Below are positions 17,782 to 60,917 of a stretch of 64,000 nucleotides of DNA, piece after piece. The number at the start of each line of letters is the position of its first letter. Position 1 is the stretch's first letter. The stretch is from positions 2,701,384 to 2,765,383 of the forward strand of contig OZ244905.1 in NCBI GenBank assembly GCA_965221695.1, in the 5' to 3' direction. This DNA is from Gammaproteobacteria bacterium. GTDB taxonomy: Bacteria > Pseudomonadota > Gammaproteobacteria > Eutrophobiales > Eutrophobiaceae. Made by a program: the position numbers and the translations under genes. Below the pieces are notes generated by a model. The model was given only the letters and a program-made list of their open reading frames with translations. It was not told the DNA's origin and did no database searches.

Positions 17782-17828
17782 GATTTTGCTGATATATGCT
17801 GTGTAAATTTTACTAACTGTCCTGCACC

Positions 17829-29251: not shown

Positions 29252-29866
29252 ATGTCTAAAAGTTCCAAACGCTGGCTGCAGGAACATAACCGGGATAGGT
29301 ACGTTAACCTGGCCCGGAGCCGGCGACTGCGTTCTCGCGCGGTGTTCAAACTTGAGGAGTTGGACCGGCGTCACAGACTGTTCCGCCCGGGACAGACGGT
29401 GCTTGACCTGGGCGCGGCGCCGGGTAGCTGGTCAGCCTACGTGGCTGAAAAGGTTAGGCCCGACGGCAAAGTCATCGCGGTCGACTTGCTGGCGATGCGG
29501 CCTATTGCCGATGTGATCTTCCTGCAAGCTGACCTGAGCAATGCAGCCAACCTGCAGAATTGTATCGCCCGGCTGAGCGAATACCGCGTTGACCTTGTAA
29601 TTTCTGATATGGCCCCCAATTTATCAGGCATAGCTGCCGCGGATCAGGCCAACAGTCTGAAACTGGCGGAAACCGCTCTCCGAATAGCCTGTTCGGCGCT
29701 GCGCGGTAACGGGCATTTTCTGGTCAAGCTGTTTCAAGGAGCTGACAGCGACGCATTCAGAAAGCAATTGACGGAGAAATTTGCTAAAGTATCAGTGAGC
29801 AAGCCGAAGGCGTCGAGGACGAACTCCAGTGAGGTATACATCCTGGCAAAAGGTTATGAGGTTTAA
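29252..29866 (+). CDS. rlmE: 23S rRNA (uridine2552-2'-O)-methyltransferase RlmE/FtsJ
   Basis: SKRWLQEH..., the DLGAAPGSWS SAM motif, and the conserved position before ftsH. Confidence 0.95.
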   Translation: MSKSSKRWLQEHNRDRYVNLARSRRLRSRAVFKLEELDRRHRLFRPGQTVLDLGAAPGSWSAYVAEKVRPDGKVIAVDLLAMRPIADVIFLQADLSNAANLQNCIARLSEYRVDLVISDMAPNLSGIAAADQANSLKLAETALRIACSALRGNGHFLVKLFQGADSDAFRKQLTEKFAKVSVSKPKASRTNSSEVYILAKGYEV

Positions 29867-29902
29867 GAAAGCTTTGAACAAGTCCATCGTTGATCTGTCA
29901 GG
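29866..29902 (+). repeat. MITE-B fragment (degenerate first hairpin)
   Basis: aagaaagctttgaacaagtccatcgttgatctgtcagg lies directly after the rlmE stop. Confidence 0.55.
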
Positions 29903-29984
29903 TGATGCAAACAATGTAAGTGATAGGATGTATGCTGGCAGGCGCTCGTCCGTTTGTTGAGATAAAGCTCAGGCATAAGGCGTT

Positions 29985-36166: not shown

Positions 36167-36260
36167 TTCCGCAGCTTTGCCAACCGTTCTATGCGGTTGC
36201 CCTGCGCAGCGATGCAGGGATAATGTGCTGTACCGCATAATCAGCTACAATAACCAGCCC

Positions 36261-36347
36261 GGAGAGGTGCCAGAGTGGTTGAATGGGGCAGACTCGAAAT
36301 CTGTTGTACGCGTCAGCGTACCGTGGGTTCGAATCCCACCCTCTCCG
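36261..36347 (+). tRNA. tRNA-Ser (anticodon CGA)
   Basis: ggagaggtgccagagtggttgaatggg...gactCGAaatc..., a long variable arm (gtacgcgtcagcgtac), T arm gtgggttcgaatcccac, and an acceptor pairing GGAGAGG/CCTCTCC with discriminator G. No CCA is encoded. Confidence 0.9.
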
Positions 36348-36701
36348 TAACATTCATGCCACAGGCGCATCTGGCGCCTGTGGCATGAATGTTGATGCAA
36401 TGGGGTTCGAACCCACGGTAATTAAATACGGGTTCGACAAATTCGCTGGGAGCGAATTTGAACAGCGTAGCTGGCCCCGGAGGGGCAAACTACATGGATG
36501 TAGTTTGTAATCCCACCCTCTCCGTAACATTCATGGCACAGGCGCTTCTGTCGCCTGTGCCATGAATGTTGATGCAATGGGGTTCGAACCCACGGTAATT
36601 AAATACGGGTTCGACAAATTCGCTGGGAGCGAATTTGAACAGCGTAGCTGGCCCCGGAGGGGCAAACTACATGGATGTAGTTTGTAATCCCACCCTCTCC
36701 G
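36332..36701 (+). repeat. Two tandem 177-bp units, each bounded by the 16-nt tRNA-Ser 3' end (three copies: 36332, 36509, 36686)
   Basis: aatcccaccctctccg occurs three times with an exact 177-bp period. Each unit starts with a 20-bp-stem hairpin (36349-36393; 36526-36570). Confidence 0.9.
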
Positions 36702-36705: not shown

Positions 36706-37896
36706 CTAATAGTCCGGTAAAGTCCGGAGTCTTCCAAGCGCTTCAATGAAATGTGCTAGTGACAGGATGGTTGTGTCCTGGCTGCCGGGGAATGTATCTT
36801 CGCCAGTGTAAACAACAAATTTCTGTTTTACCTTTAAGTCTTCACAGGCCATGTGAAAGCCTTTTTTCAAGGTTGGAGTTCGGCTTGCTTTGATCTCAAC
36901 GGCCCAGTATTCATCAAGACCAAACTCAATTACCAAATCAATTTCTGCCCCAGCAGATGTGCGATAGAAAAACGGATGAGCGCTTGAAGGTAAGGCGTTA
37001 ATAATGGTCTCAATGACAAACCCCTCCCAGCTTTTTCCGAATATAGGATGCCCCAACAAAGCTTCATAATTCGGAATTTGCAGCAAGGCATGCACAAGAC
37101 CGCTATCGCGTACATAGGTACGTGGTGATTTCACCAGCCGTTTTTTGACGTTCCCATGCCAAGGCTCTAGCCTGCGAACCAATAACAAATCAACCATGAG
37201 GTCCAGATATCGACTAACGGTGACACTCTCTACGCCAAGAGAGCTTGCGAGTTTTGACGCGTTCAGTAGTTCACCTTGTGTATGGGCAAGCATGGTCCAA
37301 AAGCGCATCAAGGTCGTTGCTGGAATTCTTGGTCCTAGCTGAGGGATGTCTCGTTCCAGATAGGTGCGAATAAAATTCTGCCGCCACTGGTGACTGGCCG
37401 CATCATCTTCAGCGGCATAGCTGTCGGGAAACCCACCACGTATCCAGAGCTTTTGTAAGGGCTCTCCGGATGTTTCTTCAATTTCAAAAAGGTTTAAGCC
37501 AGTCAGTTCAGAGTAATGAATGCGGCCAGCAAGGCTCTCAGAGCTTTGTTTTAGCAACTCATTGGTTGCCGATCCTAAAACAAGAAAGCGTCCGTTTCCG
37601 CGCCCCTCACGACGTCTGGCATCAATGATTCCGCGCAGTGACATAAACAAATCAGGGTAGCGTTGGACCTCATCGAGAATGACCAGCTTATCTGCATGTA
37701 GTTCTAGATAGTGGGCAGGGTCTTTGAGCTTTTGGAAATCCTCTGGGTTCTCGAGATCCAAATAAACAGATGGTTGCCCTTTGGCGATCTCATGGGCAAG
37801 CGTTGTCTTGCCAATCTGGCGCGGGCCAAGAATGGCAACAGCCGGATTTTGACTGAGACTTTTGATGATTTTCTGTGTAAGCTCTCTTTCATACAT
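36706..37896 (-). CDS. AAA-family ATPase with C-terminal DUF4143-type domain
   Basis: MYERELTQKI...VAILGPRQIGKTTLAHEIA (Walker A), VILDEVQ (Walker B), about 396 aa. The track ORF extends to 37971. Confidence 0.75.
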   Translation of the reverse strand: MYERELTQKIIKSLSQNPAVAILGPRQIGKTTLAHEIAKGQPSVYLDLENPEDFQKLKDPAHYLELHADKLVILDEVQRYPDLFMSLRGIIDARRREGRGNGRFLVLGSATNELLKQSSESLAGRIHYSELTGLNLFEIEETSGEPLQKLWIRGGFPDSYAAEDDAASHQWRQNFIRTYLERDIPQLGPRIPATTLMRFWTMLAHTQGELLNASKLASSLGVESVTVSRYLDLMVDLLLVRRLEPWHGNVKKRLVKSPRTYVRDSGLVHALLQIPNYEALLGHPIFGKSWEGFVIETIINALPSSAHPFFYRTSAGAEIDLVIEFGLDEYWAVEIKASRTPTLKKGFHMACEDLKVKQKFVVYTGEDTFPGSQDTTILSLAHFIEALGRLRTLPDY

Positions 37897-38276
37897 GCTA
37901 GCAATACTAACACAAAATATTAAATATGCAAGGTAAATGTTTTTGTGGTGATCTGTTTCCAATGAAGGCAAAGCGGGATTAGAACCCGCGATACGGTACC
38001 GTGTTCACAACAAAAACCGGCGCTTGGCGAGGAAGGTGTACAGGCGGGTGGTGAACAAGTCGCCGGTACGGCGAACTTTGCGAGGCACAAACCTCTTATC
38101 ACCCAATGTAATTCGGTTTGTATAGTCCGCAACATCCGTAATTGGTTTTGAAAATCCTGTGTCTATGGACAACCCCCCCATACTTGATTAGCATAAGTCA
38201 TAAGGAGGACCTATCGTGAACGTTGATTTCGTGACAAAGCGCCAGTCTGACAATCTCATGCAAATGCCGACCATCC

Positions 38277-38684
38277 ATGTCCAGGATTCGTTGTTATAGT
38301 ATCGGTCGAGACCCCTCCGCATCCATCGTACTGCGTCATGAGACGGTGTCGCGCAGGCATGCAGAGTTGATTCCCGTATCCGGCGGGCAGGTATACGTCA
38401 CGGATTGCGCCAGCGCCTGCGGGACTTTCATCGATAAGGGCAGGCGCTGGGAGAGGCTTACCCAGGATTTCGTCGGCGCAGGCGGCAGGGTGCGTTTCGG
38501 CGAGGTTGAGGTCAGCGTGCAGAGTCTGCTGGCGGACATTGCCCGCTTGCCTGCCGGCGGTGGAACGGGTCCCGGCGGTTCGGCGGAGCCCGGCGGTACC
38601 CCAGGCGCCGATAAGAAGAAACATGTGGATGCCGGCCGCGGGGTCATGCGCGACCCGGAAACGGGCGAGCCGATTCCCATGTAA
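38277..38684 (+). CDS. Small FHA-domain protein with Gly/Pro-rich tail (operon gene 1)
   Basis: YSIGRDPSASIVLRHETVSRRHAEL...VTDCASACGTFI carries the FHA G-R...S-R-x-H...GT pattern. Confidence 0.75.
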   Translation: MSRIRCYSIGRDPSASIVLRHETVSRRHAELIPVSGGQVYVTDCASACGTFIDKGRRWERLTQDFVGAGGRVRFGEVEVSVQSLLADIARLPAGGGTGPGGSAEPGGTPGADKKKHVDAGRGVMRDPETGEPIPM

Positions 38685-38699
38685 TCGGACAGACAGACC

Positions 38700-39473
38700 A
38701 TGAACCAGAGAATGAGGATATTCATAGGGGCGCTGGGCGCGGGCGTGATCTTCATCGGCCTGCTCAGCCTGTTTTTCTCCGAAGGTTTCTTCGCCGACTT
38801 CCTGCTGGACCGGAATTCGAAGTTCATGCCCTACCCGGTCACGATACAGAATATCATGTGGCTGGTGTTCTTCATCGGGGCGGGAGAATTGCTGTCGCGC
38901 TACCTGCAGACGGACCGGGAAATCAGCCAGATCCGCCTGGGACTGTTGCCGGAGGACAGCACAACCCTATTGCGCAAGCAAGATCTGGGCGGCGTGTACC
39001 AGCGCGTCAAGGAAACCATGCACCCGGCGCCGGGCGCTGCGGAGGATTCCTATTTCCTGCAACGCCTGCTGTCCCGTTGTATCCTGCAGTTCCAGGTCAG
39101 CGGCGCCATTGATAAGGCAAACAACATGTTCAACTCCAGCCTGGAGTTGTTCCAGCACGAGGTCGAGCTGAGGTACAATGCCATTCGCTATATCGTCTGG
39201 CTGATCCCGACCCTGGGGTTCATCGGCACCGTGGTCGGCATCGCGCTGGCGCTCAGCAACGCCGGCAGCGTCGACAACTTCCAGGACCCCACCTTGCTGA
39301 AACAGCTTACCCAGAGTCTCGGCGTAGCGTTCTTTACCACCTTGCTGGCCTTGCTGCAATCCGCGGCGCTGATGTTCGCGCTGCATGTCGTACAAGGACA
39401 GGAGGAAGCGTCGCTGAACCGGATAGGGCAGTATTGCCTGGATAACCTGATTAACCGGTTGTACGAGACTTGA
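38700..39473 (+). CDS. MotA/TolQ/ExbB-family proton-channel-like membrane protein (operon gene 2)
   Basis: Predicted TM helices are present. The C-terminal block IPTLGFIGTVVGIALAL...LGVAFFTTLLALLQSAALMF matches the MotA_ExbB signature PxLGxxGTVxG...AxxTTxxGL. Confidence 0.7.
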   Translation: MNQRMRIFIGALGAGVIFIGLLSLFFSEGFFADFLLDRNSKFMPYPVTIQNIMWLVFFIGAGELLSRYLQTDREISQIRLGLLPEDSTTLLRKQDLGGVYQRVKETMHPAPGAAEDSYFLQRLLSRCILQFQVSGAIDKANNMFNSSLELFQHEVELRYNAIRYIVWLIPTLGFIGTVVGIALALSNAGSVDNFQDPTLLKQLTQSLGVAFFTTLLALLQSAALMFALHVVQGQEEASLNRIGQYCLDNLINRLYET

Positions 39474-39715
39474 TGGGGGTCGCCTGCGCGAGACAAATCG
39501 GCAGGACAGCCGATTTGCGCAGCGACTGCTGCCCGCAGGGTTGTATCCAGGGAAGGATGCAATGAGTGACGGAAGGAGAGAGGAATGACGGGTGGGTTCA
39601 AGAATGACGGTTAAGGGGCGAAGGGAGGTGTCGGCAAGTGGGTGTCGGCAAGTTGAACGCAGGGTGGTTTTCTGTTAAATTTTCATCAACCGCAACACCA
39701 GAAGGGGAGGACATC

Positions 39716-40375
39716 ATGCCGGTAAAACGCGATGCGGACGGGAACATCATAAAGGAACAGACAAGAACTACCGGAGTGGGTGATCCGGTGTTGCCGACCT
39801 TGGGGCGCTCCACTGTCGGCGCCACGGTCGGCCCCGGCAGGTCTCCCGAGACCAACCCCGGCCAGTCATCGGGTTATGAGGCCCAGACGGTGCTGGCAGG
39901 TTCGCCCCGTGTCGCGGAAGGGGAAGCCAGGACCCGGATCTACCGGCCCGGCAGGACGGGGCGGCAACAGCCGGAGACACCGGCTCCAGGTACGGGCGCT
40001 GAGGACGCGACGTCCTCTGCCATGGACGACCCGCCCGTAGGCTGGCTGGTCGTCGTCAGTGGGCCGGGACAGGGGAACTACATGGCCGTCGGCAACGGTT
40101 CGAATTCAGTCGGACGCGATGAGCGCGAGCGAGTGCGCGTGGATTTCGGTGACGAGTTGATCTCCCGCAGCGACCATTCAACGATCACCTACGATCCCAG
40201 GGGTAAGAAGTTTTACCTGCAGCACGGCGCCGGAAAAAACCTCACTTACCTGGAAGGCAAACCTGTCCTGGCGCCGACCGAACTGCCCGGGTTTTCCCGG
40301 ATCACGATTGGGAACACCGAATTGCTGTTCATCCCGCTCTGTTGCGATCAGTTTGACTGGGACGACTACACGTAA
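39716..40375 (+). CDS. FHA-domain protein with Thr/Pro/Gly-rich disordered N-terminus (operon gene 3)
   Basis: The ATG at 39716 is preceded by gaaggggagga. The C-terminus reads GWLVVVSGPGQGNYMAVGNGSNSVGRD...ISRSDHSTITYD...NLTYLEGKPV...ITIGNTELLF. Confidence 0.8.
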   Translation: MPVKRDADGNIIKEQTRTTGVGDPVLPTLGRSTVGATVGPGRSPETNPGQSSGYEAQTVLAGSPRVAEGEARTRIYRPGRTGRQQPETPAPGTGAEDATSSAMDDPPVGWLVVVSGPGQGNYMAVGNGSNSVGRDERERVRVDFGDELISRSDHSTITYDPRGKKFYLQHGAGKNLTYLEGKPVLAPTELPGFSRITIGNTELLFIPLCCDQFDWDDYT

Positions 40376-40384
40376 CAGGTCGTT

Positions 40385-41368
40385 ATGAATGCCCTCAAGC
40401 AGTGGGTGTCGGGAGAGCAGATCCAGGGAGACCGAAATTACCAGGAAGACTATTTCTCGCTCAGCCTGCTTTCCCAGGGCCGGGAACCTCCGGATGAAGA
40501 CTGCCTGCTGCTCGTGCTGGCCGACGGCATGGGCGGACATGCCGGCGGCGCCGTTGCCAGCGAGACGGTAGTCAAGGCATTCCAGGAGGGCTTCAACCGC
40601 GATGCAACCGGGATCGCAGAGCGTTTCAGCGCCGGCATCGACACCGCCAACAACGCCGTCAGGGAAAAACAACAGGCCGATCCGGAACTGTCCGAGATGG
40701 GTTGCACCCTGGTGGCCGCGCTGGTGGTCGGGTCGACCCTTTACTGGACCAGCGTCGGCGATTCCATACTGTGGCTGTGCCGGCAGGGACATTTGCAGAG
40801 ATTGAATGCGGACCATTCCATGAAACCGCTGTTGCTGGACCTGGTCGAATTGGGCAGGATGACCGAAGAAGAGGCGCTGAGCGATTACCGGATCAACCAG
40901 CTACGCTCGGCCATTTTCGGCGAGGAGGTTCAGCTGATTGACATGAACGCGGACGGTTTCCAACTGGAGAGTGGTGATCTCGTTTTACTGGCCAGCGACG
41001 GCCTGGAAACCCTGTCCGGGCAAAGCATGACAGATGTCATCGAGGCCCGCGCGGACGATGCCGATGAGATAGTGAACGCCCTGCTTGACGCAGTTGCCAT
41101 GGCGGGGGTGCGCGGGCAGGACAATACTACGGCGCTGGCGTACCGGGTCGGCCAGGGGCATGATTCACTGCACGGCGTACTGGCGGGCATCAGCACAGAT
41201 GACAAGGATGCCGTATTCGAGCAGCAAGTGAAACCCTCCCGAACCTGCGAGTTGCGCCCGGCACAGGAACAGGAAGCGCCGGCAAAGCGGCCCGGCATCT
41301 TCGCCCGAGCCATACATGCCTTCTCCGGTAGACCGGCGCGTCAAGACACTCGTGACGGGAAGCAATGA
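40385..41368 (+). CDS. PP2C-family Ser/Thr protein phosphatase (operon gene 4)
   Basis: RNYQEDY, LADGMGGHAGG, LASDGL and GQDNTTA motifs. Confidence 0.85.
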   Translation: MNALKQWVSGEQIQGDRNYQEDYFSLSLLSQGREPPDEDCLLLVLADGMGGHAGGAVASETVVKAFQEGFNRDATGIAERFSAGIDTANNAVREKQQADPELSEMGCTLVAALVVGSTLYWTSVGDSILWLCRQGHLQRLNADHSMKPLLLDLVELGRMTEEEALSDYRINQLRSAIFGEEVQLIDMNADGFQLESGDLVLLASDGLETLSGQSMTDVIEARADDADEIVNALLDAVAMAGVRGQDNTTALAYRVGQGHDSLHGVLAGISTDDKDAVFEQQVKPSRTCELRPAQEQEAPAKRPGIFARAIHAFSGRPARQDTRDGKQ

Positions 41369-43104
41369 CAGCAATACGAGCATTGATGTTGTGTGCGCTT
41401 CTGGTGTACCTGCCGGCAGGCAACAGCCAGACGACCGGTGATGACGCAGAAGCGCCGGCTGTTTCCTCTGCCACTGCACCCGCTGTGCCTGCTGATACGC
41501 CCGTGACAACGGAGGACCCAGCGCAAATAGCCGCCCCCTCAGCGGATACAGCCACGGCGATTGCCGCGGTTGTGCAGGTTCCCGAACCCGTAGATTTCAG
41601 TGCGGTGCGGCCCCACCTGGTGGTCATAAGAGAAGGGATGGACGCCGCCGCACGTCGCACGCCGGGATTCAGCATCAGCGACCAGGGCCATATCCTGACT
41701 TATTCCGGAGAATTACGCGCCCGGGAGTACTACCTTGTCTCGGTTGCAGGCGGTCAGGTCTTTACTGCTGCGCTGCTTGATGAAGATGAAGACACCGGCC
41801 TCATGCTACTGAGGATCGCAGGAGAAGGGCACGGCCTCACCGCCCTGAAGTTTGCCAGAACGACGCTGGAAGCCGCGGTGCCGCTCTATGCAGTACGGTT
41901 CGACCCGGTGCGGGCGGAGCCGTTCGTGCCCGTTCCCGGCACGGTCACGCGGTTGCCTGCAACGGATGAGGAGACACCGGCAATCGTGCATAATGCCCTG
42001 TTCAATACGGCGGCCGCCGGGACGCCCTTGTTCAACCGTTGTTACCAGGCGGTCGGTGTCAGCGTGCTGCAAAGGAAGGGCTTCCCGCCGAGAACTCTCG
42101 ATCCCCAACAACAGGGTAGCGCCATCTCCCTGGCGGCCTACTCGTTGAGCGTGATCCTGGCGTCGGCCAACCTGACCCTGCCCATCGCTGAGGCGGAGTG
42201 CCAGAGTGCGGAGGAGGAGGCGCGACTGCGGCTGGAACAACTTCAGCAGGAAAAAGAGGCGGAGCGGGCAAATGCCGAAGCCCTGGCCCTTGCCGCCGCG
42301 GAGGAAGCGCTGCGCAGGGAGGCGGTAATGAACCTGGAGCGGGAAGCAGCGCAACAGCAGCTTGAACAGGCGCGCCAAGAGAAAGAAGCGGCCCTGCAGG
42401 CGGAGCGGGCAAGTGCCGAAGCCGATAAGCGCCGTTTGGAAGAAGAAGCGCAGCAACAACTTGAACAGGCGCAGCAGGAGAAGGAACAGGCCCTGCAGGC
42501 ACAACAGCAGGAGAATGAACAGGCTCTGCAGGTGGAGCGGCAGGAGACCGAACAGGCCCGGCGGGAAGCCCGGCAGGCGACGCATACGGGGAAACAGATC
42601 CTGCTGTTATCGCTAGCGGTCGTCTTCGTCCTGGCGCTGGTCTTCTTCCTGGTCCTGCGCGCCAGGCGTAAACACCTGCAACGCGTGGAACAGGAAAAAC
42701 AGCAGTTCGCCCAGGACCTGGACAGGGCAGAGGCAGACCTGTCAGACGCCTCCGAGAGGGAGCAGCTACGCGCCGGCGCCCCCGACGTGTTTATCGAGGG
42801 TGTCACGCCGCAGAACGAGCGCATCGCCCTGAAAATACCCGGCGCCTCACTGGTCAAACCCTCAGGTGTCACGGTAGGCAGGAGTCCCTCCGAATCCGAG
42901 TTCGTCATCAATCACGAACAGGTCTCCCGCCGCCATTTCCGCCTCATGCTGGTGTCTGGGCAGGTGATGATCGAAGATATGGGCTCGACCAATGGGACCG
43001 TCGTGAACGGCGTGCCCCTCAGTCCCGGCGCCCGGCAGACGCTGGGCGACGGCAGCCGCATGCAGGTCGGGCGCGTGACGATGACGGTGCGGATAGGTCT
43101 CTGA
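41365..43104 (+). CDS. Bitopic membrane protein: signal peptide, trypsin-like (apparently inactive) periplasmic domain, repetitive coiled coil, TM helix, cytoplasmic FHA domain (operon gene 5)
   Basis: Signal MTAIRALMLCALLVYLPAGNSQ. The HtrA-like layout (GFSISDQGHILTY...DTGLMLLRI...AAAGTPLF) lacks an obvious His or Ser. QQLEQAxQEKExALQA repeats follow, then TM ILLLSLAVVFVLALVFFLVL. The FHA region reads VTVGRSPSESEFVINHEQVSRRHFRL...STNGTVVNG. Confidence 0.65.
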   Translation: MTAIRALMLCALLVYLPAGNSQTTGDDAEAPAVSSATAPAVPADTPVTTEDPAQIAAPSADTATAIAAVVQVPEPVDFSAVRPHLVVIREGMDAAARRTPGFSISDQGHILTYSGELRAREYYLVSVAGGQVFTAALLDEDEDTGLMLLRIAGEGHGLTALKFARTTLEAAVPLYAVRFDPVRAEPFVPVPGTVTRLPATDEETPAIVHNALFNTAAAGTPLFNRCYQAVGVSVLQRKGFPPRTLDPQQQGSAISLAAYSLSVILASANLTLPIAEAECQSAEEEARLRLEQLQQEKEAERANAEALALAAAEEALRREAVMNLEREAAQQQLEQARQEKEAALQAERASAEADKRRLEEEAQQQLEQAQQEKEQALQAQQQENEQALQVERQETEQARREARQATHTGKQILLLSLAVVFVLALVFFLVLRARRKHLQRVEQEKQQFAQDLDRAEADLSDASEREQLRAGAPDVFIEGVTPQNERIALKIPGASLVKPSGVTVGRSPSESEFVINHEQVSRRHFRLMLVSGQVMIEDMGSTNGTVVNGVPLSPGARQTLGDGSRMQVGRVTMTVRIGL

Positions 43105-43818
43105 ATGAACCGTTCATTGTGGTGCGGTTTGATATTTCTCAGCCTCTGGGGTCTGAGTTACCAGGGTGGCGCGGATATTGATGACCAGGAAGAACATTTC
43201 AGGGAGGAGCAGGGGGCGCAACAGGATCAGGAAGCCGCGCGACGGGAACGCAAGCGTGCCCGACAGGCAGAACAGGAGGCGCTCCGGCAACAGGAAGCGG
43301 CGCGCCAGCGCGTGGTTCAGCAAAATCTGTTCGTAACCTTGCTGGCTCTGTTGACCCTGCTGGCCTTGATACTGGCCTTGAGAAAACCCCGGCAGGCCAT
43401 TGTTTGGGCCGCCGGCCACGCAATCGAACCACTCAGTCGGCGCTTCAAACCGGCAGGGCGCTTGCCCGCGCCGGGCGCAGCCCGCGCCGGGACGGCAAAC
43501 GTCGTACTTACGGGCTTTGACAGCCGGGGCAAACCGGTGAATATCCCGTTGCCGGAGGAGGAACTGGATCGGAAACGGGGCGGTTTCACCCTGGGGCGCC
43601 ATCACCTGCTGGTCGATACGGCGCTGGACGATGACCGGATATCGAAGCGCCATGCCCGGTTCACCCGCAACGGTCACGGCTATTTTATCGAAGACCTCAA
43701 TTCGAGAAACGGCACTGTGATCAACGGTGAGCAACCCTGCGCGCCGTTCAAACCCATGCGAATCAGGCCCGGCGACACGGTGCGGCTAGGCGGCATGGAG
43801 TTGCTCGTATCGGCCTGA
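43105..43818 (+). CDS. Membrane-anchored FHA-domain protein (operon gene 6)
   Basis: N-terminal hydrophobic segment, a charged E/Q/R-rich stretch, TM LFVTLLALLTLLALILAL, and a C-terminal FHA (FTLGRHHLLVDTALDDDRISKRHARF...SRNGTVING). The ATG abuts the gene 5 stop. Confidence 0.75.
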   Translation: MNRSLWCGLIFLSLWGLSYQGGADIDDQEEHFREEQGAQQDQEAARRERKRARQAEQEALRQQEAARQRVVQQNLFVTLLALLTLLALILALRKPRQAIVWAAGHAIEPLSRRFKPAGRLPAPGAARAGTANVVLTGFDSRGKPVNIPLPEEELDRKRGGFTLGRHHLLVDTALDDDRISKRHARFTRNGHGYFIEDLNSRNGTVINGEQPCAPFKPMRIRPGDTVRLGGMELLVSA

Positions 43819-43831
43819 TTCGGAAGCGCCC

Positions 43832-44635
43832 GTGAGGCTACGCAGCAAGGAGATCAATGTCTTCAACATGTCCGCGCTGGACCTGTTCGCCTCCGCGCTG
43901 GGTGCGTTTATCCTTATTTCCGTGGTCTTGTTTCCCTATTTTCCCAACACCGGCGATTCCCAGGAACGGGTGGACGAGGTCAAGGCGCAACTGGCTGAGG
44001 CCAATGCGCGATTGGAGGAAACCAGCGCCGAACTGGAGCAGGTCCGCGCCCGGTTGAACCCCGCCCTGGAACAAGAACTGCAGGTCGCACGAGAACAACT
44101 CGGCGCGTGCCAGGCCCGACTCCGGGAGGCAGAGGCCGCGCTAAACGCCTGCCAGGTTGAACAGCGAGAAGTTGCATCATTGGATTCCGCGCTGGGCGCC
44201 TGCGAGAACCGCAACCGGCAGATGCAACAGGAACTGCAATCCTGCGAGAATGAATTGCGCAAGAAATTCGTGCTGGTCGTGATCAGCTGGGGCACGCCGG
44301 ACGATATCGACCTGCACGTGATCGATCCGCAAGGCCGGGAGTTCTTCTACGGGCGCAAACACATCCCCGGTTCCCTGGCAAAACTGGAAGAGGACAACAC
44401 CAGAGGTCCCGGCAATGAGATCTGGCTGCACCCGGCCGCGGAGCCGGGCGCCTACGAGGTTTACTACAAATATTACGATGGATCAACCGGCAACGTGCAG
44501 GTGCGCGGCGCGGCGCTGACGCCCCGCGGCAGGACGGAGTTGCCGGACATCACTCTGCGGTACGTGGGTGAGAAGCCCCTGGTGGCAACCATTTTCGTCA
44601 ATGAGGATGGCAACGCTGAGGTGAGGGCATGGTAA
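43832..44635 (+). CDS. Bitopic protein with MotB/ExbD/TolR-like Asp-containing TM helix, Cys-bearing coiled coil and C-terminal DUF2135 (YfaP)-like domain (operon gene 7)
   Basis: N-terminus MRLRSKEINVFNMSALDLFASALGAFILISVVLF (compare TolR SEINIVPLLDVLLVLLLIF and MotB ADFMTAMMAFFLV). The coiled coil has four xAC(Q/E)/SCE motifs. The C-terminus reads VISWGTPDDIDLHVIDPQGREFFYG...EEDNTRGPGNEIW...PGAYEVYYKYY. Confidence 0.6.
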   Translation: MRLRSKEINVFNMSALDLFASALGAFILISVVLFPYFPNTGDSQERVDEVKAQLAEANARLEETSAELEQVRARLNPALEQELQVAREQLGACQARLREAEAALNACQVEQREVASLDSALGACENRNRQMQQELQSCENELRKKFVLVVISWGTPDDIDLHVIDPQGREFFYGRKHIPGSLAKLEEDNTRGPGNEIWLHPAAEPGAYEVYYKYYDGSTGNVQVRGAALTPRGRTELPDITLRYVGEKPLVATIFVNEDGNAEVRAW

Positions 44636-44660
44636 CGCGGCGGGAGGGGAATTTTCCGCA

Positions 44661-44690
44661 TTGACACGATTTCCCAGGCCCCCTTAGAAT
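44661..44690 (+). promoter_or_regulatory. Sigma-70-like promoter candidate upstream of the kinase gene
   Basis: TTGACA (44661-44666), an 18-nt spacer, then TAGAAT (44685-44690). A perfect 9-bp inverted repeat, ccggtgaca-N11-tgtcaccgg, follows at 44700-44728. Confidence 0.4.
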
Positions 44691-44766
44691 ACGGTTTAAC
44701 CGGTGACACAATTTAATTCTGTCACCGGATTTACGGGGCAAACATAACAAACAAAGACGGCCTTCC

Positions 44767-47373
44767 ATGAACTCCGACCACCTGCATGCCCTACCGCCCG
44801 GCACGCGCCTTGAAGAATTTCGGCTGGAGGCGCAGGTGGGCGCCGGCGGGTTCAGCATCACCTATCGGGCCTATGACGAATTACTGGACAAGGTGGTGGC
44901 CGTCAAGGAATACCTGCCGCGGGATTTCGCCACCCGCACCGCCGGCAATACAGTGGCGCCCATATCCGATGCGGACGCCCGGGATTACCAGTGGGGCCTG
45001 ACCCGGTTCCTGGACGAGGCCCGCACGCTGGCCAGGTTCGACCATCCGCATCTCAACAAGGTGCGTCGTTTCTTCGAGGCCAACGGCACGGCCTACATGG
45101 CGCTGGAGCATATCCATGGCGAGACCCTGGCTACCCGGTTAAGCCGCGAGCGGCGCTTGCCGGAAACGGACCTGCTGCGCCTGCTGGAGGAAGTGTTATC
45201 GGGACTTGCTGTGATTCACGAGGCTGGCTACGTGCACCGGGACATCAAACCGGGCAACCTGATGCTGCGCGAGGAAGACGACAGCATAGTGCTGCTGGAC
45301 TTCGGCGCCGCGCGCCAGGCAGTGGGCCAGAGTTCCAAGTCAATCACCAGCATCCTGACACCGGGCTATGCCCCGATAGAGCAGTACGAAAGCAAAGCGG
45401 ACGCCGTCGGACCGTGGAGTGATATCTATGCATTGGGGATGGTGGCGTACAAGTGCATCAGCGGCGCGGGTGACGGGGAGTTGCCCGATGCCGTGACCCG
45501 GGCCCGCTCCCAACGCAAAGGGGGTAAGGACCTGGCGATGGCGGCGGAGGTGGGCCAGAGCAGGTACAGTGCGAAGCTGCTGGCGGCGATAGACTGGGCC
45601 ATCGAGGTGGATGAGGAGTCCCGGCCGCAGGGGGTGGGTGAGTGGAGTGAGGCGCTGGTGGGGAGCGGGAGCAAGCAACGAGCCGCCAAACCGGCGCCTA
45701 ATACAACGGCACGGTCTGCAAAGGCTCCGGCCACCGAGCGCCAGGGTATGAATTGGTACAGCATGGCCCTGACCGCGGTGATAGTGGTGTTACTGGGAGC
45801 GAGCGCCTGGCAGGGCTGGCGGCTGTATCAGGGGATGCCCGGGCTTGGCGTAGACGGCGCCGCCACGGCAGTTGAGTCGCAGGCAAACGCACAGGGCAAA
45901 GCAGAGTTAGCAGCAGAACCCTATGCACAAACACCAACGGTAACGCCAGAACAAGGCTCCGGGCCTGACGCGCCCACACTGGCCGCGCCGGTTGAGGAAG
46001 ACGAAGTCGCCCGGCTGCTGGCTGCAGCCGAAGCCGACTTGGAGGCAAGACGCCTGACCAGTCCGCAGGGGAACAACGCCTGGGAGAAGTACCGGCGGGT
46101 ATTGGGTTTATCCTCCGCGCACCCCGAGGCCATAGCGGGGATGGAGCGGGTGATCGGGAGTTACATGGACCTGTTCGGCGCTGTTCTGGAGCAGGAGGAT
46201 TTTGACCAGGCGGAGGGGTATCTCTCACGCATCCGCGACCTGCACCCGGATTCGCCACTCTTGTTGACGGGGAAAGAACGTTTGGAACAAGCCCGGCAGG
46301 CTCATGTCGAGCGGTTGGCGGAAGAAGAGCGCCTGCGCCAGGCCGAGGAAGCGGCGCGCCAGGCGGAACAGGAGCGCCAGCGAATAGCACAGGAAATCGA
46401 GAGACACTGGCAGTCCTTTGAGACGGCAATGCAGCAAGACAAATTGGACCGGGCGGAAGACAGTCTCAACCTCGTGCGGGAGTTGGACTCGGACGCGCCG
46501 GGGTTAGCGGATGCGGAACGACGCCTGTCACAGGCGCGGGAAGCATCCCGGCAGAAGGCGCTGCAGTATGCCGGTGAGATGGTCTCCATCCCTGCCGGCA
46601 GTTTCCGCATGGGGGACCTGACAGGCGCTGACGCTGAGAAACCGGTCCACAGTGTGCGAGTCGCGGCCTTCAGCATGGGCAAGTATGAGGTAACGGTGGG
46701 CCAGTTCCAGCGGTTTGTGGAGGCGACGGGGTACCTCACGGATGCGGAGCGTTATACGGACGGCAAAGCAGGTTGTTCTGTCTATACAACAAAAAGATGG
46801 AAGTACACCGAGGGCAAGAGTTGGCGCAATCCGGGGTTTTCAGTCGGAGACAAGCACCCGGTGGTGTGCGTGAACTGGAATGATGTGCAGGCGTTCGTGA
46901 AGTGGCTGAACGGCAATACCGATGGGGATTTCCGCTTGCCGACCGAGGCGGAGTGGGAGTATGCGGTGCGCGCCGGGAGCAGTACGAAGTATCATTTCGG
47001 CAATGATGAGTCACAACTGTGCCGGTTTGCCAGCCATGCGGACAGCGGGACGGATATTGATTGGAAAAACAAGTCCTGCTCGGACGGTGTGGGCGAACGC
47101 ACCGCCGAAGTGGGCCGTTACCAGCCGAACAGTTTCGGGCTGTATGACATGCACGGCAATGTCTGGGAGTGGGTGACAGATTGCTGGAATGAGAGTTATG
47201 TGGGCGCCCCGACAGACGGTAGCGCCTGGACGAATGGGGACTGCAGCCGGCGCGTCATTCGGGGCGGGGCCTGGGACAGCTCACCGTGGAACCTGCGTTC
47301 CGCGCACCGTTACGGGAGCTCCCGTTCGAATCACAGCTCTTATCTGGGCTTTCGCTTGGCCCGGGACAACTGA
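44767..47373 (+). CDS. Transmembrane Ser/Thr protein kinase fused to a C-terminal FGE-sulfatase (SUMF1/formylglycine-generating enzyme family) domain (operon gene 8)
   Basis: Kinase motifs GAGGFSITY, VAVKEY, HRDIKPGNLML, DFGAAR and TPGYAPIEQY. TM WYSMALTAVIVVLLGASAW. A helical/coiled periplasmic linker follows. The FGE domain reads MVSIPAGSFRMGD...FRLPTEAEWEYAVRAG...GLYDMHGNVWEWV...RVIRGGAWDS...LRSAHR. Confidence 0.85.
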   Translation: MNSDHLHALPPGTRLEEFRLEAQVGAGGFSITYRAYDELLDKVVAVKEYLPRDFATRTAGNTVAPISDADARDYQWGLTRFLDEARTLARFDHPHLNKVRRFFEANGTAYMALEHIHGETLATRLSRERRLPETDLLRLLEEVLSGLAVIHEAGYVHRDIKPGNLMLREEDDSIVLLDFGAARQAVGQSSKSITSILTPGYAPIEQYESKADAVGPWSDIYALGMVAYKCISGAGDGELPDAVTRARSQRKGGKDLAMAAEVGQSRYSAKLLAAIDWAIEVDEESRPQGVGEWSEALVGSGSKQRAAKPAPNTTARSAKAPATERQGMNWYSMALTAVIVVLLGASAWQGWRLYQGMPGLGVDGAATAVESQANAQGKAELAAEPYAQTPTVTPEQGSGPDAPTLAAPVEEDEVARLLAAAEADLEARRLTSPQGNNAWEKYRRVLGLSSAHPEAIAGMERVIGSYMDLFGAVLEQEDFDQAEGYLSRIRDLHPDSPLLLTGKERLEQARQAHVERLAEEERLRQAEEAARQAEQERQRIAQEIERHWQSFETAMQQDKLDRAEDSLNLVRELDSDAPGLADAERRLSQAREASRQKALQYAGEMVSIPAGSFRMGDLTGADAEKPVHSVRVAAFSMGKYEVTVGQFQRFVEATGYLTDAERYTDGKAGCSVYTTKRWKYTEGKSWRNPGFSVGDKHPVVCVNWNDVQAFVKWLNGNTDGDFRLPTEAEWEYAVRAGSSTKYHFGNDESQLCRFASHADSGTDIDWKNKSCSDGVGERTAEVGRYQPNSFGLYDMHGNVWEWVTDCWNESYVGAPTDGSAWTNGDCSRRVIRGGAWDSSPWNLRSAHRYGSSRSNHSSYLGFRLARDN

Positions 47374-47463
47374 AACGAAGGCATTATAAAGACTCTATAC
47401 ACAGGACTATCCGGCTGGATTCCCTTTTCCCCTTCTATCTCATCGGCAATCGCCTGGCGAACT

Positions 47464-49089
47464 TCACCGCATCGATTTTTGCAGTACCGAGAAGTTTCTT
47501 ACCCAAGGCTCTAGTTTGCGTATTTCATCGGGCAAATCATCTATAGCTCTTTCGGCAAGCTCATAGTCATGGTACAGACCATAAAACACGCGATAGTAAG
47601 TTATCTGCTCGATCTCGATCCTGATATAGGCAATCTGCTGTGTCAGGTTATTCTGTTTGAGGAAATTTAGCACACGTTCTTCACTGGAAAAGCTGGCCAG
47701 TTGCAAAGTGTAGTGATACGGAGATTGTGCGGCGACCCAGTCTTCCCGCCTGATAGCGGTCTCACCGGCGTCAGAGGCATCCTCGCCAGCCAACTCATCT
47801 TCATCGGAAATGACCTCGCTGGTGGTCGCAACCAGATCGGAAATGGCCTCTGGTACAGCCGCAATGTATTCCGCTGTCGCTGGTACAGGGCTGGTGTCCG
47901 CGGTCTCTGCAACAGTCTCCGGCGTTTCCTCCTCCGCGGCGTTCAGCGCGATCTCGGCGGTGTCCTCATCCGTCTGAGCAGCTACGATGGTCGGCGTTTC
48001 TTCGACAGCAGGCGCTGTGTCTTCTGCTTCAGTTGCCTCAGCAGCAGTTTGAGCAAGGCTGGTCTCCGCGGTCTCTGCAACGATCTCCGGCGCTTCCTTC
48101 TCCGCATCGAACAGTGCGGTCTCGGCTGTGTCTTCGTCCGACTGAGCGGCTATGGTCGGCGCTTCCTCCTGCGTGACGCTCAGTGCGGTCTCGGCAGCGT
48201 CCTCATCCGGCTGAGCAGCTATAATCGGTGTTTCCTCGACGGCAGGTACCGTATCTTCTTCAGTTGCCTGCGCAAAGGGTTCTGTTGTTTCCTGCATTGC
48301 AGGCGCTTGCGATACGGTCGTGTCCTCTTCAATATCGACATAAGCAAGTCTTTGTAAGCTTTCTTCTGCCTGTTGCAGACCCCCGGCGGCCGCGCGTTGA
48401 TACCATTTTTTCGCCTCCACCAGGTCCTTTTCTACCGCGTAACCATTTTCATAGTACACGCCCATGTTGAATTGCGCCTGTGGGACATCGGCGTCAGCGG
48501 CTTTTCTGAACCAGAGTAGCGCTACATCATAGTCCTGGTCGACGCTGTAACCGAAGGCGTACATGACAGCCAGGCTGTATTGCGCATTTCCGTTTCCCTG
48601 CTCTGCTGCTTGGCGGAAAAGCCGGGTGGCTGTTTCATAATCCCGGGTAATCTGCTCACTGCCGTTGAAGTACAAAAGGCCAAGGTTGAACAGCGCATCC
48701 GATTGCCCGGCCGCCGCGGCCAGCTTCCACCATTGCATGACTTTAGACGGGTCTTTTGTGACACCATCACCGTGCAAGTACTTGACGCCGAGCTCGAATT
48801 GGGCGTCGGGGTGCCCTTGATCCGCCGCAAGCAAGTACCATTTTACTGCTTCGGCAGAATCTGCGTTAACGCCATGGCCATAGTCATACATGAGGCCAAG
48901 CATTCTTTGCGCATCCGAGTTGCCGTCCTCAGCCAGTGGTTGCAGTATTTCGTAGGCTTTTTCGTAGTCTTTGGCCAGGTAGGCCTGTCTCGCCGTTTCA
49001 AAAGATTGCGCCAGCACAGGGCCGGAAAATACCAACCCCAATAACAGGAAAGGAATTAACTTGGTCAGCATAAACCGTATCTTTGACAT
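47464..49089 (-). CDS. Exported Sel1-repeat protein with acidic repetitive linker and C-terminal SPOR domain
   Basis: Signal-like N-terminus, about five Sel1 repeats (DAQxxLGxxYxxGxGVxxDxxxAxxWY), an E/T/A/D-rich repeat region, and the C-terminal YTLQLASFSSEERVLNFL...YYRVFYGLY. Confidence 0.75.
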   Translation of the reverse strand: MSKIRFMLTKLIPFLLLGLVFSGPVLAQSFETARQAYLAKDYEKAYEILQPLAEDGNSDAQRMLGLMYDYGHGVNADSAEAVKWYLLAADQGHPDAQFELGVKYLHGDGVTKDPSKVMQWWKLAAAAGQSDALFNLGLLYFNGSEQITRDYETATRLFRQAAEQGNGNAQYSLAVMYAFGYSVDQDYDVALLWFRKAADADVPQAQFNMGVYYENGYAVEKDLVEAKKWYQRAAAGGLQQAEESLQRLAYVDIEEDTTVSQAPAMQETTEPFAQATEEDTVPAVEETPIIAAQPDEDAAETALSVTQEEAPTIAAQSDEDTAETALFDAEKEAPEIVAETAETSLAQTAAEATEAEDTAPAVEETPTIVAAQTDEDTAEIALNAAEEETPETVAETADTSPVPATAEYIAAVPEAISDLVATTSEVISDEDELAGEDASDAGETAIRREDWVAAQSPYHYTLQLASFSSEERVLNFLKQNNLTQQIAYIRIEIEQITYYRVFYGLYHDYELAERAIDDLPDEIRKLEPWVRNFSVLQKSMR

Positions 49090-50520: not shown

Positions 50521-50563
50521 AGCGTCGGGTTTCCTTTAATTCAGGTAGGGACGGTTTTACGCG

Positions 50564-50601
50564 CTCTGACAAGTCCAGGATGGACGTGTTCAGAGTTTCC
50601 C
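50564..50601 (-). repeat. MITE-B fragment (first hairpin only)
   Basis: ctctgacaagtccaggatggacgtgttcagagtttccc. Confidence 0.6.
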
Positions 50602-59433: not shown

Positions 59434-60747
59434 GTGGCGTCAAGACAAGGCTCAGTCCGCAGTCCGGTGAATAGTCTGAATCCCTCCCTGCGGGAATACT
59501 GGCCCCGGCGTTACACGCTGACCGGCCTGGCGGTTATCGCGATGTTCATCTGCTACATGGACCGGGTGAACATTTCCATTGCCATCATACCGATGGCTGA
59601 CGACATGGGTTGGCAGCCGGAACAACAGGGCATGGTATTGTCGTCTTTTTTTCTCGGTTACCTGTTAACCCAGGTCCTCGGTGGCCGCCTGGCGGATCGC
59701 CATGGCGGCAAGCTTGTGCTGGGAGTTGCGGTACTGGTCTGGTCGTTGTTCACGTTTGTCACACCCGTAGCTGCAATGGCCGGTTTCGGCGCACTGCTCC
59801 TGGCGCGTATCGGTATGGGCGCAGGCGAAGGCGTGGCGTTGCCGGCCGTTTACAGTCTCTACGGTCGCTGGTTGCCGCGTCATGAGTTTTCCCGCGCCAT
59901 TGGCGCTACCTTTTCTGCGATGACCCTGGGGATTGTTTTCGGCATGGCAGCCACGCCCTGGATCATCGTCAATTTCGGTTGGCACTGGGCATTTTATTCA
60001 TTCGGTCTCGCCGGTTTTGCCTGGTTCATCTTCTGGCACAAAAGCGCTGCGTCGCATCCTGACCTGCATTCGGGTATCAGCGAGCAAGAGCGCGCGCTGA
60101 TACGCAGGGATGCGGCGCCGGTCACGGCAACACAGGCGCCGCCCTGGGGCCAGTTGTTAACCACACCGGCCGTCTGGGCTATCATCGTGGCCCATTTCTG
60201 TTCCAACTGGGGTGTGTACGTGCTGCTGGCGTGGATGCCCACCTATATCAACAAGGGGTTGCAGGTTGATTTCAATGCGGTGGGCTTGTATGCAATGATC
60301 CCCTACATCGCCGCCTTCCTGTTCTTTAACATAGCCGGCGCGCTCGCAGACAGACTGGCCATGCGTGGTTGGGAGACAATAAAAATCCGCAAGTTGATGC
60401 AAGTCATCGGTTTTGGCGGACCGGCGCTGATCCTGATGTTCGTCGGTAATGTCGATAATGCAGAAGCCGCGATTGCATTGATGACACTGGCCAATATTTT
60501 TATAGCCTTCAATGCGGGCGCTTTCATCGTCAACCACCTGGACATAGCCCCGAAATACGCCGGCGTTTTGATGGGCCTGTCGAACACGGCAGGCACAATA
60601 CCGGGTATCATAGGCGTTTATGTCAGCGGAATGATACTGGGGCTGACTGGTTCGTGGACGCTGGTGTTTCAGCTCGCAGCGCTGGTATACCTGCTGGGGC
60701 TGGTATTCTACCTGGCGTTCGCATCGGGCAAACGCCTGTTTGATTAG
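59434..60747 (+). CDS. MFS transporter (anion:cation symporter-like)
   Basis: About 12 predicted TM helices and GGRLADRHGGK (MFS loop 2-3 motif). The GTG start is uncertain. Confidence 0.8.
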   Translation: MASRQGSVRSPVNSLNPSLREYWPRRYTLTGLAVIAMFICYMDRVNISIAIIPMADDMGWQPEQQGMVLSSFFLGYLLTQVLGGRLADRHGGKLVLGVAVLVWSLFTFVTPVAAMAGFGALLLARIGMGAGEGVALPAVYSLYGRWLPRHEFSRAIGATFSAMTLGIVFGMAATPWIIVNFGWHWAFYSFGLAGFAWFIFWHKSAASHPDLHSGISEQERALIRRDAAPVTATQAPPWGQLLTTPAVWAIIVAHFCSNWGVYVLLAWMPTYINKGLQVDFNAVGLYAMIPYIAAFLFFNIAGALADRLAMRGWETIKIRKLMQVIGFGGPALILMFVGNVDNAEAAIALMTLANIFIAFNAGAFIVNHLDIAPKYAGVLMGLSNTAGTIPGIIGVYVSGMILGLTGSWTLVFQLAALVYLLGLVFYLAFASGKRLFD

Positions 60748-60900: not shown

Positions 60901-60917
60901 AGTTTTGGAGACAACTT

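Follow-up and report, generated by a model that had tools for sequence, protein, structure and literature searches.

The window analysed here is a stretch of 64,000 nucleotides (nt) from a Gammaproteobacteria bacterium (GenBank assembly GCA_965221695.1, contig OZ244905.1, positions 2,701,384 to 2,765,383). It contains a cluster of eight genes, g1 to g8, in which a membrane protein of the MotA/ExbB/TolQ family and a bitopic membrane protein are combined with four FHA-domain proteins, a PP2C phosphatase and a Hanks-type receptor kinase. The same set of genes recurs in at least six bacterial phyla in differing order, and the eight appear to form one system. We tentatively interpret this system as a phospho-threonine-gated, ion-driven inner-membrane motor of the TolQ/ExbB type. 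The most informative clue is the hypermutation of the sensor kinase by diversity-generating retroelements (DGRs) in sister genomes.

The cluster consists of eight co-directional open reading frames (ORFs) on the + strand at 38277-47373, all of them recovered by ORF calling on the window. An earlier reading of the sequence, the first-pass annotation, had described eight packed genes separated by -4 to +15 nt, apart from gaps of 242 and 131 nt. Both the ORFs and their spacing were confirmed: the distances are +15 nt between g1 and g2, +9 between g3 and g4, -4 between g4 and g5, 0 between g5 and g6 and +13 between g6 and g7, and the two larger gaps separate g2 from g3 (242 nt, with the g3 start at ATG 39716) and g7 from g8 (131 nt). 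The genes and the features associated with them are as follows.

38164-38276, + strand: 5' leader, with a promoter-like TGGACA-17-TAGCAT at 38166-38194 and an AAGGAGG motif
38277-38684, + strand: g1, small soluble FHA protein of 135 aa (Pfam FHA, 3e-13)
38700-39473, + strand: g2, TolQ/ExbB/MotA-family membrane protein of 257 aa (PF01618, 1e-10)
39474-39715, no strand: g2-g3 spacer of 242 nt, with a strong stem-loop directly 3' of the g2 stop
39716-40375, + strand: g3, soluble protein with a C-terminal FHA domain (Pfam FHA, 4e-6)
40385-41368, + strand: g4, PP2C Ser/Thr phosphatase (PP2C_2, 3e-13; NCBIfam Stp1, 7e-41)
41365-43104, + strand: g5, HtrA-like domain plus FHA domain (Trypsin_2, 3e-6; FHA, 2e-16)
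43105-43818, + strand: g6, membrane FHA protein (Pfam FHA, 3e-17)
43832-44635, + strand: g7, bitopic presumed B subunit, with an N-terminal transmembrane (TM) helix and an invariant Asp17
44661-44690, + strand: promoter-like site TTGACA-18-TAGAAT in the g7-g8 gap, matching the consensus at 11 of 12 positions
44767-47373, + strand: g8, receptor Ser/Thr kinase (Pkinase, 2e-31; FGE-sulfatase, 1e-67)
47245-47365, + strand: part of g8 with homology to the DGR variable region in the sister ortholog
47374-47463, + strand: remnant of the element that follows the variable region in the sister genome, with the GGATTCCCTTT motif retained and the GC hairpin degraded

Conservation of the cluster across phyla

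Homologous loci were collected by scanning one genome per species; ORFs were called, and hidden Markov models (HMMs) were built from the window proteins and the first-round matches. Detectable relatives number 2,323 for g2 and 941 for g7, and 359 stretches encode relatives of g7. When 1.84 billion cluster representatives were scanned in full with an HMM, 197 clusters fell into the g2 subfamily at E <= 1e-30. Relatives of g7 are found in Gammaproteobacteria (SAR86, Pseudohongiella, Halieaceae, Thiomargarita, Beggiatoa-like bacteria, Nitrincola and Thiomicrospira) and Alphaproteobacteria (Hansschlegelia, Lichenihabitans), and also in Binatia, Latescibacterota, Vicinamibacterales, Campylobacterota and Phycisphaerales. 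The same gene set surrounds g7 homologs in 79 loci, and the conserved cluster is distributed over Gammaproteobacteria, Alphaproteobacteria, Binatia, Latescibacterota, Acidobacteriota and Campylobacterota. Conservation of the neighbourhood in other genomes had been set beforehand as a test of the original proposal, and recurrence across several phyla bears it out.

Gene content was counted in 51 loci that extend at least 6 kb on each side of g7.

MotA-like gene: 44 of 51 loci
FHA domain: 46 of 51 loci (at least two FHA domains in 42 of 51)
PP2C: 39 of 51 loci
Kinase: 45 of 51 loci (at least two kinases in 23 of 51)
FGE-sulfatase domain: 34 of 51 loci
HtrA-like-FHA protein: 37 of 51 loci
Full core: 33 of 51 loci

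In 55 of 64 cases the immediate upstream neighbour of the MotA-like gene is an FHA gene. Because gene order differs between phyla while content stays the same, the association speaks for a functional link and against inherited synteny. Compared at the DNA level with the sister genome, the closest relative (loci L005 and L007), the window is similar from 38164 to near 44690; the flanks are unrelated, so that the cluster lies in different chromosomal contexts in close relatives. It had also been stated that no type VI secretion system (T6SS), flagellar, Tol, TonB or division genes accompany the cluster. This holds, and none of the loci inspected lies within a known machine: no T6SS, flagellar, Tol/Ton, gliding or Zorya locus encloses the cluster in any of them.

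Carriers in culture include Nitrincola alkalisediminis JCM 19317, Thiomicrospira microaerophila ASL8-2, Hansschlegelia beijingensis DSM 25481 and Gammaproteobacterium LSUCC0112, which makes genetics feasible.

The MotA/ExbB/TolQ-family protein g2

g2 belongs to the MotA/ExbB/TolQ family. It matches the Pfam family MotA_ExbB (PF01618) with 41.7 bits against a gathering cut-off of 22.9 (E 1e-10). Two channel-helix motifs, PTLGFIGTVVGI and LGVAFxTTLLAL, are invariant. PTLGFIGTVVGI and AFxTTLLAL are invariant in 36 sequences and align to residues 149-200 of PomA, including its GT and TT positions; the aligned ion-path residues include Thr residues of PomA TM3 and TM4. The AlphaFold2 model of g2 (pLDDT 83.7) has no long C-terminal extension, and in a Foldseek search of the PDB its top matches are all A subunits of 5:2 motors (TolQ, ExbB, MotA, PomA and ZorA), with a TM-score of up to 0.71 for TolQ. 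Among the PADLOC models there is a weak match to ZorA2 (7.5e-6). The first-pass assignment of g2 as MotA/TolQ/ExbB-like is thereby upheld by both profile and fold, and g2 is presumed to be the pentameric A subunit of a 5:2 motor.

A conserved phospho-acceptor in the cytoplasmic loop of g2 was considered and rejected, as the Thr of LPEDxxTxLR is not invariant.

The presumed B subunit g7

Hydropathy analysis places a single TM helix of g7 at residues 11-29, at the N-terminus and with the N-terminus inside. Within this helix (SALDLFASALGAF), Asp17 is invariant in alignments of 30 and of 31 sequences from several phyla, and the first 30 residues (MSALDLFASALGAFILI) are near-invariant from Gammaproteobacteria to Latescibacterota. 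The periplasmic part is composed of a coiled coil of about 100 residues with periodic Cys, followed by a TerD-like β-sandwich head. An OmpA-like or ExbD/TolR-type periplasmic domain is absent.

The first-pass annotation had called g7 MotB/ExbD-like. The topology, Asp17, linkage to g2 and a weak resemblance to ZorB1 agree with this proposal, whereas the expected Pfam families MotB_plug and ExbD are not matched. The full-length protein returns only coiled-coil noise and a weak PADLOC match to ZorB1 (residues 6-70, 3.8e-4). When the N-termini alone were compared with 5,027 PADLOC models, 13 of 31 matched, all to the single family ZorB1 (MotB), the best of these weak matches having an E of 2.3e-4. 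The MotA-like gene is found within 10 kb of g7 in 44 of the 51 loci and is directly adjacent in many (e.g., L022, L028 and L032), and neither the ORF list nor Pfam points to a further B-subunit gene in the cluster. The functional analogy between g7 and a B subunit is drawn from topology, the membrane Asp, linkage to g2 and the lack of any other B-type gene; homology of g7 to known B subunits is weakly suggested.

A C-terminal DUF2135-like domain had also been proposed for g7. This is unsupported, since residues 141-267 match no Pfam family, including DUF2135 and TerD, even at E <= 10. The similarity of the head to TerD is at fold level only. The head carries an invariant acidic motif, DxDLHV...LEEDNxxGPGNE (also noted as DxDLHV..DP), and its acidic residues presumably recall the calcium-binding motif of TerD.

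In Latescibacterota, Binatia and other groups the N-terminal helix and coiled coil of g7 are fused to a vWA head with a MIDAS-type DxSGS or DxTGS motif. These vWA-type genes are located in FHA/MotA/PP2C/kinase clusters of the same type, and the two types of g7 sometimes occur in tandem. TerD-like and vWA heads are interchangeable on one membrane helix. At one locus (L086, 11152-11751) a HEPN_AbiU2 gene directly follows a vWA-type g7.

Kinase, phosphatase and FHA proteins

The four FHA domains, the PP2C phosphatase and the Hanks-type kinase of the first-pass annotation were corroborated by Pfam and NCBIfam matches, and catalytic motifs are present. In g8 the kinase motifs VAVK, HRDIKPGN and DFG are intact. 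The cytoplasmic kinase domain is followed by a TM helix at residues 330-348, a periplasmic helical or TPR-like linker and a domain of the FGE-sulfatase/C-type-lectin fold, with residues 603-866 matching PF03781 (1e-67). The phosphatase g4 retains its metal-binding motifs, including DGMGG.

The FHA domain of g3 is preceded by a disordered N-terminus rich in Ser, Thr, Pro and Gly. g5 consists of a signal peptide, an HtrA-like domain, a periplasmic coiled coil, a TM helix at residues 412-430 and a cytoplasmic FHA domain. g6 has a signal peptide, a short charged periplasmic segment, a TM helix at residues 74-92 and a cytoplasmic FHA domain, and looks like a truncated paralog of g5. The topology that had been predicted for g5, g6, g7 and g8 agrees with hydropathy throughout.

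The HtrA-like domain of g5 (residues 85-246, window positions 41617-42102) was aligned to MucD, HhoA and HtrA1, and has Gly, Gly and Ala at the positions of the triad His, Asp and Ser. The catalytic Ser is missing in most g5 homologs as well; among the loci examined, His, Asp and Ser are kept in L056 alone. An active serine protease of the HtrA/DegP type was therefore rejected, and the loss of the triad suggests that this domain is probably a binding module. The FHA domains of the cluster also match the Yop-YscD_cpl, GltG and TagH models, in each case far below the family cut-offs and reflecting the generic FHA fold (TagH, for instance, at 38 bits against a cut-off of 120).

At the end of one related cluster (L085, 15932-19915) there is a gene for a kinase of 1,327 aa with PG_binding_1 and ankyrin repeats.

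Diversification of the kinase sensor

In the closest relative (L004, L005 and L007, in which g2 is 92% identical), genes for Avd and a reverse transcriptase (RT) are found 3' of the g8 ortholog. Downstream of the RT gene this sister genome carries a 119-nt template repeat (TR) that matches the 3' ends of three kinase-FGE-sulfatase genes. Differences between the TR and the three variable regions (VRs) fall at template adenines in 16 of 17, 19 of 20 and 18 of 19 cases. Adenine-specific TR/VR pairs targeting the cluster kinase are also present in two Latescibacterota genomes (L013, L014) and in Candidatus Azophilus (L022); in L005/L007, L013, L014 and L022, 14-19 of 16-21 mismatches are at a template A. 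These repeat pairs, which are sequence signatures, identify the cluster kinase as a DGR target in four lineages, including the closest relative. DGR targeting, together with tandem kinase arrays, suggests that the periplasmic lectin-fold domain is under diversifying pressure, as for an input domain.

Each of the three VRs in L005 is followed by a copy of the same 68-nt element (2568-2635, 9254-9321 and 18802-18869) that ends in a GC-rich hairpin, GCCCGGCGCATAGCGCCGGGC. This element is probably the target-recognition structure of that DGR.

The homologous segment of the window, 47245-47365, differs from the sister template at about 10 non-adenine positions, so that the sister template cannot write it. 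A DGR within the window was considered and rejected: the 64 kb contain none of its components, and the hairpin downstream of g8 is degraded. With the VR homolog and hairpin in this state, hypervariation is not acting here, unless by a remote DGR outside the 64 kb. Either g8 of the window was once targeted by a DGR, or a remote element targets it.

Gene starts and transcription signals

The first-pass annotation had placed the beginning of the cluster at 38216. The GTG at this position was rejected as the g1 start, since it lies in another frame that runs into a stop at 38297-38299 (ORF end 38299), and it is not conserved, being GTA in the sister genome; g1 accordingly starts at ATG 38277. The leader region is 89% identical to that of L005, and at 38164 the DNA becomes homologous to that of the sister genome. 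Between 38200 and 38299 there is a perfect AAGGAGG, and with the GTG begins an ORF of 27 codons, in a different frame, that runs across the g1 start. A true upstream ORF is less likely here than a leader that is conserved but untranslated.

The ORF of g3 is open from GTG 39638; ATG 39716 has an upstream Shine-Dalgarno-like GGGGAGG and thus the better ribosome-binding site. The fold of the g2-g3 spacer is more stable than that of shuffled controls (z -2.4). It is mostly missing from the sister genome and may therefore be an inserted element similar to repetitive extragenic palindromic (REP) sequences. As for the promoter-like site at 44661-44690, the number of such sites in the region is not above chance expectation.

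Proposed mechanism and alternative explanations

In the mechanism that we tentatively favour, g2 and g7 would form a 5:2 complex, with the g7 dimer driven to rotate by ions passing through Asp17. Binding of a ligand to the periplasmic lectin-fold domain of g8 would trigger Thr autophosphorylation, and the phospho-sites would be bound by the FHA proteins: at the membrane by g5 and g6, and on the cytoplasmic face of the motor or on the Thr-rich tail of g3 by g1 and g3. This docking would switch the motor on or off, and the PP2C phosphatase g4 would reset the system. Since the conserved set is devoid of an enzymatic effector, the output might be the motor itself, either as force exerted through the stalk and metal-binding head on a periplasmic or outer-membrane partner, or as dissipation of membrane potential.

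Hypervariation of the sensor suggests that the ligands recognised are variable and probably non-self, for example molecules of phages, competitors or a host that enter the periplasm, and the role of the system is possibly periplasmic non-self surveillance. An ion-driven envelope-stress or conflict module, the speculative role put forward in the first-pass annotation, is likewise a putative one. A fully programmable form of such surveillance, in which receptor kinases that are rewritten by DGRs or multiplied as paralogs sense changing non-self ligands and, via phospho-threonine and FHA binding, switch on a proton-driven rotary motor as effector, is a specific proposal that we consider unlikely.

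Several observations weigh against the gated-motor interpretation. For the g7 membrane helix, Pfam gave no match to MotB_plug or ExbD, and a profile search run with it against PDB sequences recovered no solved B subunit, only the insect protein Orco at a non-significant level. In the window, 4.4 kb separate g2 from g7, two genes that lie side by side in many of the other loci. Orphan g7 genes among metabolic genes, with no other cluster gene within 10 kb, are found in SAR86-type and some other genomes (L020, L021, L023, L024, L029 and L030). An RT is found near the cluster in only 4 of the 51 loci, and the 64-kb window lacks an RT, Avd and a template repeat of 47245-47365. The cluster is flanked by housekeeping genes and not by a defence island. 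We infer the g2-g7 complex, its stoichiometry, ion flow, phosphorylation and the FHA partners alike, and signalling may run from kinase to motor or from motor to kinase.

The latter direction is the basis of the first alternative, in which the TolQ-like/g7 complex senses an envelope perturbation or a ligand, the FHA proteins read motor activity and the kinase relays the signal to targets outside the cluster. A motor-as-sensor role has been proposed for ZorAB, and the weak matches to ZorA and ZorB HMMs, the tight coupling of FHA and MotA-like genes, and the lack of an effector enzyme in the conserved set, which would leave the kinase as a candidate output, all fit this scheme. However, the part of the system that is diversified is the periplasmic lectin-fold domain of the kinase, which is the signature of an input domain, and g2, at 257 aa, does not have the long cytoplasmic tail that ZorA uses in signalling. 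Reversed flow is an unlikely explanation.

A second possibility is adhesion, uptake or surface remodelling energised by the proton-motive force, without any role in conflict. Here the motor would pull on an outer-membrane or matrix partner, as TonB or TolA do, and the kinases would tune it to nutrients, particles or a host. This is consistent with the force-transducer logic proposed for transpore-helix-vWA proteins (PMC12204202), with hosts that include marine heterotrophs, sulfur oxidisers and lineages such as Binatia, Latescibacterota and Spongiihabitans, and with a housekeeping neighbourhood that has a TonB-dependent receptor 3 kb downstream. On the other hand, no gene for an outer-membrane partner is conserved in the cluster, the flanks differ even among close relatives, and where DGRs of cellular genomes target kinase-lectin proteins, the context considered so far has mostly been conflict or regulation (PMC10907252, PMC7517822). 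We consider this explanation rather unlikely.

It is improbable that the cluster encodes a trans-envelope scaffold or secretion-type assembly, in which g5 and g6 would form a ring like the FHA-bearing proteins YscD/PrgH, EssC and GltG, energised by the motor and controlled by phosphorylation as in the PpkA/PppA/Fha1 pathway of T6SS. g5 and g6 are bitopic with periplasmic coiled coils, and this and the matches of the FHA domains to Yop-YscD_cpl, GltG and TagH models speak for such a role; these matches, however, reflect a generic fold far below the cut-offs. Moreover, an ATPase, a secretin, a needle or sheath, a substrate and an outer-membrane component are all lacking from the conserved set, and the orientation of g5 and g6, with a periplasmic N-terminus and a cytoplasmic C-terminal FHA domain, is opposite to that of YscD. 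Finally, the two larger gaps, with their hairpin and promoter-like site, make more than one transcript possible, but a general Ser/Thr signalling cassette that merely adjoins an ExbB-like gene and a membrane protein with no relation to it is highly improbable and already disfavoured, given that the same set is syntenic in distant phyla with different gene orders and that the DNA shared with the sister genome by homology coincides with the cluster and excludes its flanks.

Returning to the phospho-threonine-gated motor, the interpretation offers a testable model that leads from variable periplasmic ligand recognition to mechanical or electrical action, and a concrete downstream pathway for many kinase-lectin DGR targets that lack a known function. 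To our knowledge, each 5:2 ion-driven motor so far (flagellar stators, Ton, Tol, gliding/type IX secretion and Zorya) has defined new envelope biology. If the interpretation is true, this would be the first 5:2 motor connected to Ser/Thr phosphorylation of the eukaryote-like kind and, in some lineages, to a receptor that undergoes targeted hypermutation. If surveillance is indeed its role, the cluster would provide bacterial defence or recognition with anticipatory hypervariable receptors and a mechanical or ion-flux output.

Flanking regions and other features of the window

About 1.5 kb upstream of the cluster, a tRNA-Ser(CGA) gene (36260-36348) is followed by two hairpin-rich tandem repeats of 177 nt that extend to 36701. 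Each repeat in 36260-36701 starts with a copy of the 3' end of the tRNA, giving three copies where 0.02 are expected by chance, and the region looks like a repeated integration-site duplication or a REP array. An integration island bounded by these repeats was rejected, as att-like copies are confined to 36.3-36.7 kb and no distal copy was found in the window. Between the repeats and the cluster there is a gene for a DUF4143/AAA_14 ATPase (36706-37971, - strand). On the other side, a gene for a protein with Sel1 repeats and a SPOR domain (47464-49089, - strand) is convergent with g8 and contains internal 108-nt repeats; it is not conserved beside the cluster in other genomes.

Elsewhere in the window, a cobalamin riboswitch (663-883, 86.7 bits) precedes a gene for a TonB-dependent receptor (995-2854). 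An islet of low GC content at 13200-17800 (about 0.48 compared with about 0.57 elsewhere) contains an NYN-domain gene, small ORFs resembling toxin-antitoxin genes and a gene of the UDG superfamily. It also contains a match to the Rfam abiF RNA (16608-16645, - strand), and it is flanked by direct repeats of about 100 nt (13210-13406 and 15322-15648). Dispersed intergenic repeats of 45-170 nt with the palindromic core CTCTGAACAAGTCCATCCTGGACTTGTCAGAG resemble REP sequences or miniature inverted-repeat transposable elements. Repeats with this core are located at:

2949-3117
3813-4001
22647-22691
29862-29927
50554-50598
60738-60906

Comparison with known systems

The first-pass annotation had not recognised any described system in the gene combination, and our literature searches concur: in full-text literature, mostly outside subscription journals, no paper was found on the joining of MotA/ExbB/TolQ with FHA, PP2C, kinase, FGE-sulfatase or DGR components that is seen here. 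Partial precedents exist in PMC12204202, PMC7517822 and PMC10907252.

The closest precedent for the presumed motor is the prediction that Asp-bearing transpore-helix (TPH)-vWA proteins rotate in TolQ-like pentamers without TolR (PMC12204202, Mol Biol Evol 2025). Shared features are a TolQ-family gene with no TolR or ExbD nearby, a bitopic partner with a conserved Asp in its TM helix, a periplasmic head that is not of the OmpA type, and paired partner paralogs in some genomes. In contrast, the head in the window is TerD-like, and the text of that paper contains no kinases, FHA, PP2C or DGRs. The Idiomarina family described there is likened to g2/g7 by description only, not by sequence.

Zorya (ZorAB with ZorC/D or ZorE) likewise has a MotA/MotB-like pair outside motility, and is linked to the cluster by the weak ZorA2 and ZorB1 matches and by the presence of ZorA among the fold matches of g2. 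Unlike Zorya, g2 does not have the long ZorA tail, g7 has no peptidoglycan-binding domain, and the accessory genes encode FHA, PP2C and kinase proteins. A PADLOC scan of the cluster detected no ZorC, ZorD or ZorE, only weak ZorA/ZorB and generic kinase matches. Membership of Zorya was therefore rejected, as its defining features (tail, peptidoglycan-binding domain and ZorC/D/E) are absent.

With the PpkA/PppA/Fha1 pathway of T6SS and the actinobacterial FhaA/FhaB-PknB-PstP clusters, the system shares a Hanks kinase with an extracytoplasmic sensor, a PP2C phosphatase and one or more FHA adaptors in one operon, as well as a proposed phospho-threonine-dependent assembly or activation. The difference lies in the client, which here is presumed to be a TolQ-like motor, and T6SS or cell-division genes are found neither in the 64-kb window nor in related loci. 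Membership of the T6SS threonine-phosphorylation pathway was rejected, since T6SS genes are missing and the TagH matches concern the FHA fold only.

The TerY-P triad and TerD proteins are attributed to Anantharaman et al. 2012 and Gao et al. 2020, as cited in PMC10542128. PMC10542128 presents the TerY-P triad (TerY vWA, PP2C and kinase) as a proposed phosphorylation switch, with related modules that defend against phage. The likeness comprises the trio of vWA, PP2C and kinase, the TerD fold as an alternative to vWA, and heads that are both metal-binding modules. In the cluster, however, the vWA or TerD-like domain is located in the periplasm and attached to the motor helix, FHA and TolQ-like genes are added, and the sensor of g8 has a lectin fold, not a zinc ribbon or OB fold. 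g4, g8 and the vWA-type paralogs gave no TerY-P matches in PADLOC, and the triad was rejected as a classification, being a thematic relative only.

Kinase-C-type-lectin DGR targets have been reported in cyanobacteria (PMC7517822), in Thiohalocapsa and other multicellular bacteria (PMC10907252) and in conflict systems (PMC7159879). As in these, the kinase is N-terminal to the FGE-sulfatase/C-type-lectin domain and the C-terminal VR is rewritten at template adenines, which is confirmed for the g8 orthologs. PMC7517822, PMC10907252 and PMC7159879 report no linkage to MotA/ExbB-like, FHA or PP2C genes. In addition, a cytosolic location is predicted for most of the cyanobacterial targets, while g8 spans the membrane as a receptor, and the window copy is without a DGR.

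A vWA-kinase-FHA-PP2C operon of Deinococcus exemplifies push-pull control of kinases by FHA and PP2C proteins (bioRxiv 10.64898/2026.01.23.701218). As the parts of the cluster come from known families and the idea of the motor partner has a precedent from 2025, the system is not categorically new. What is unusual here is the combination of a presumed 5:2 motor with a complete phospho-threonine writer, eraser and reader set and a hypermutable receptor, conserved across distant phyla.

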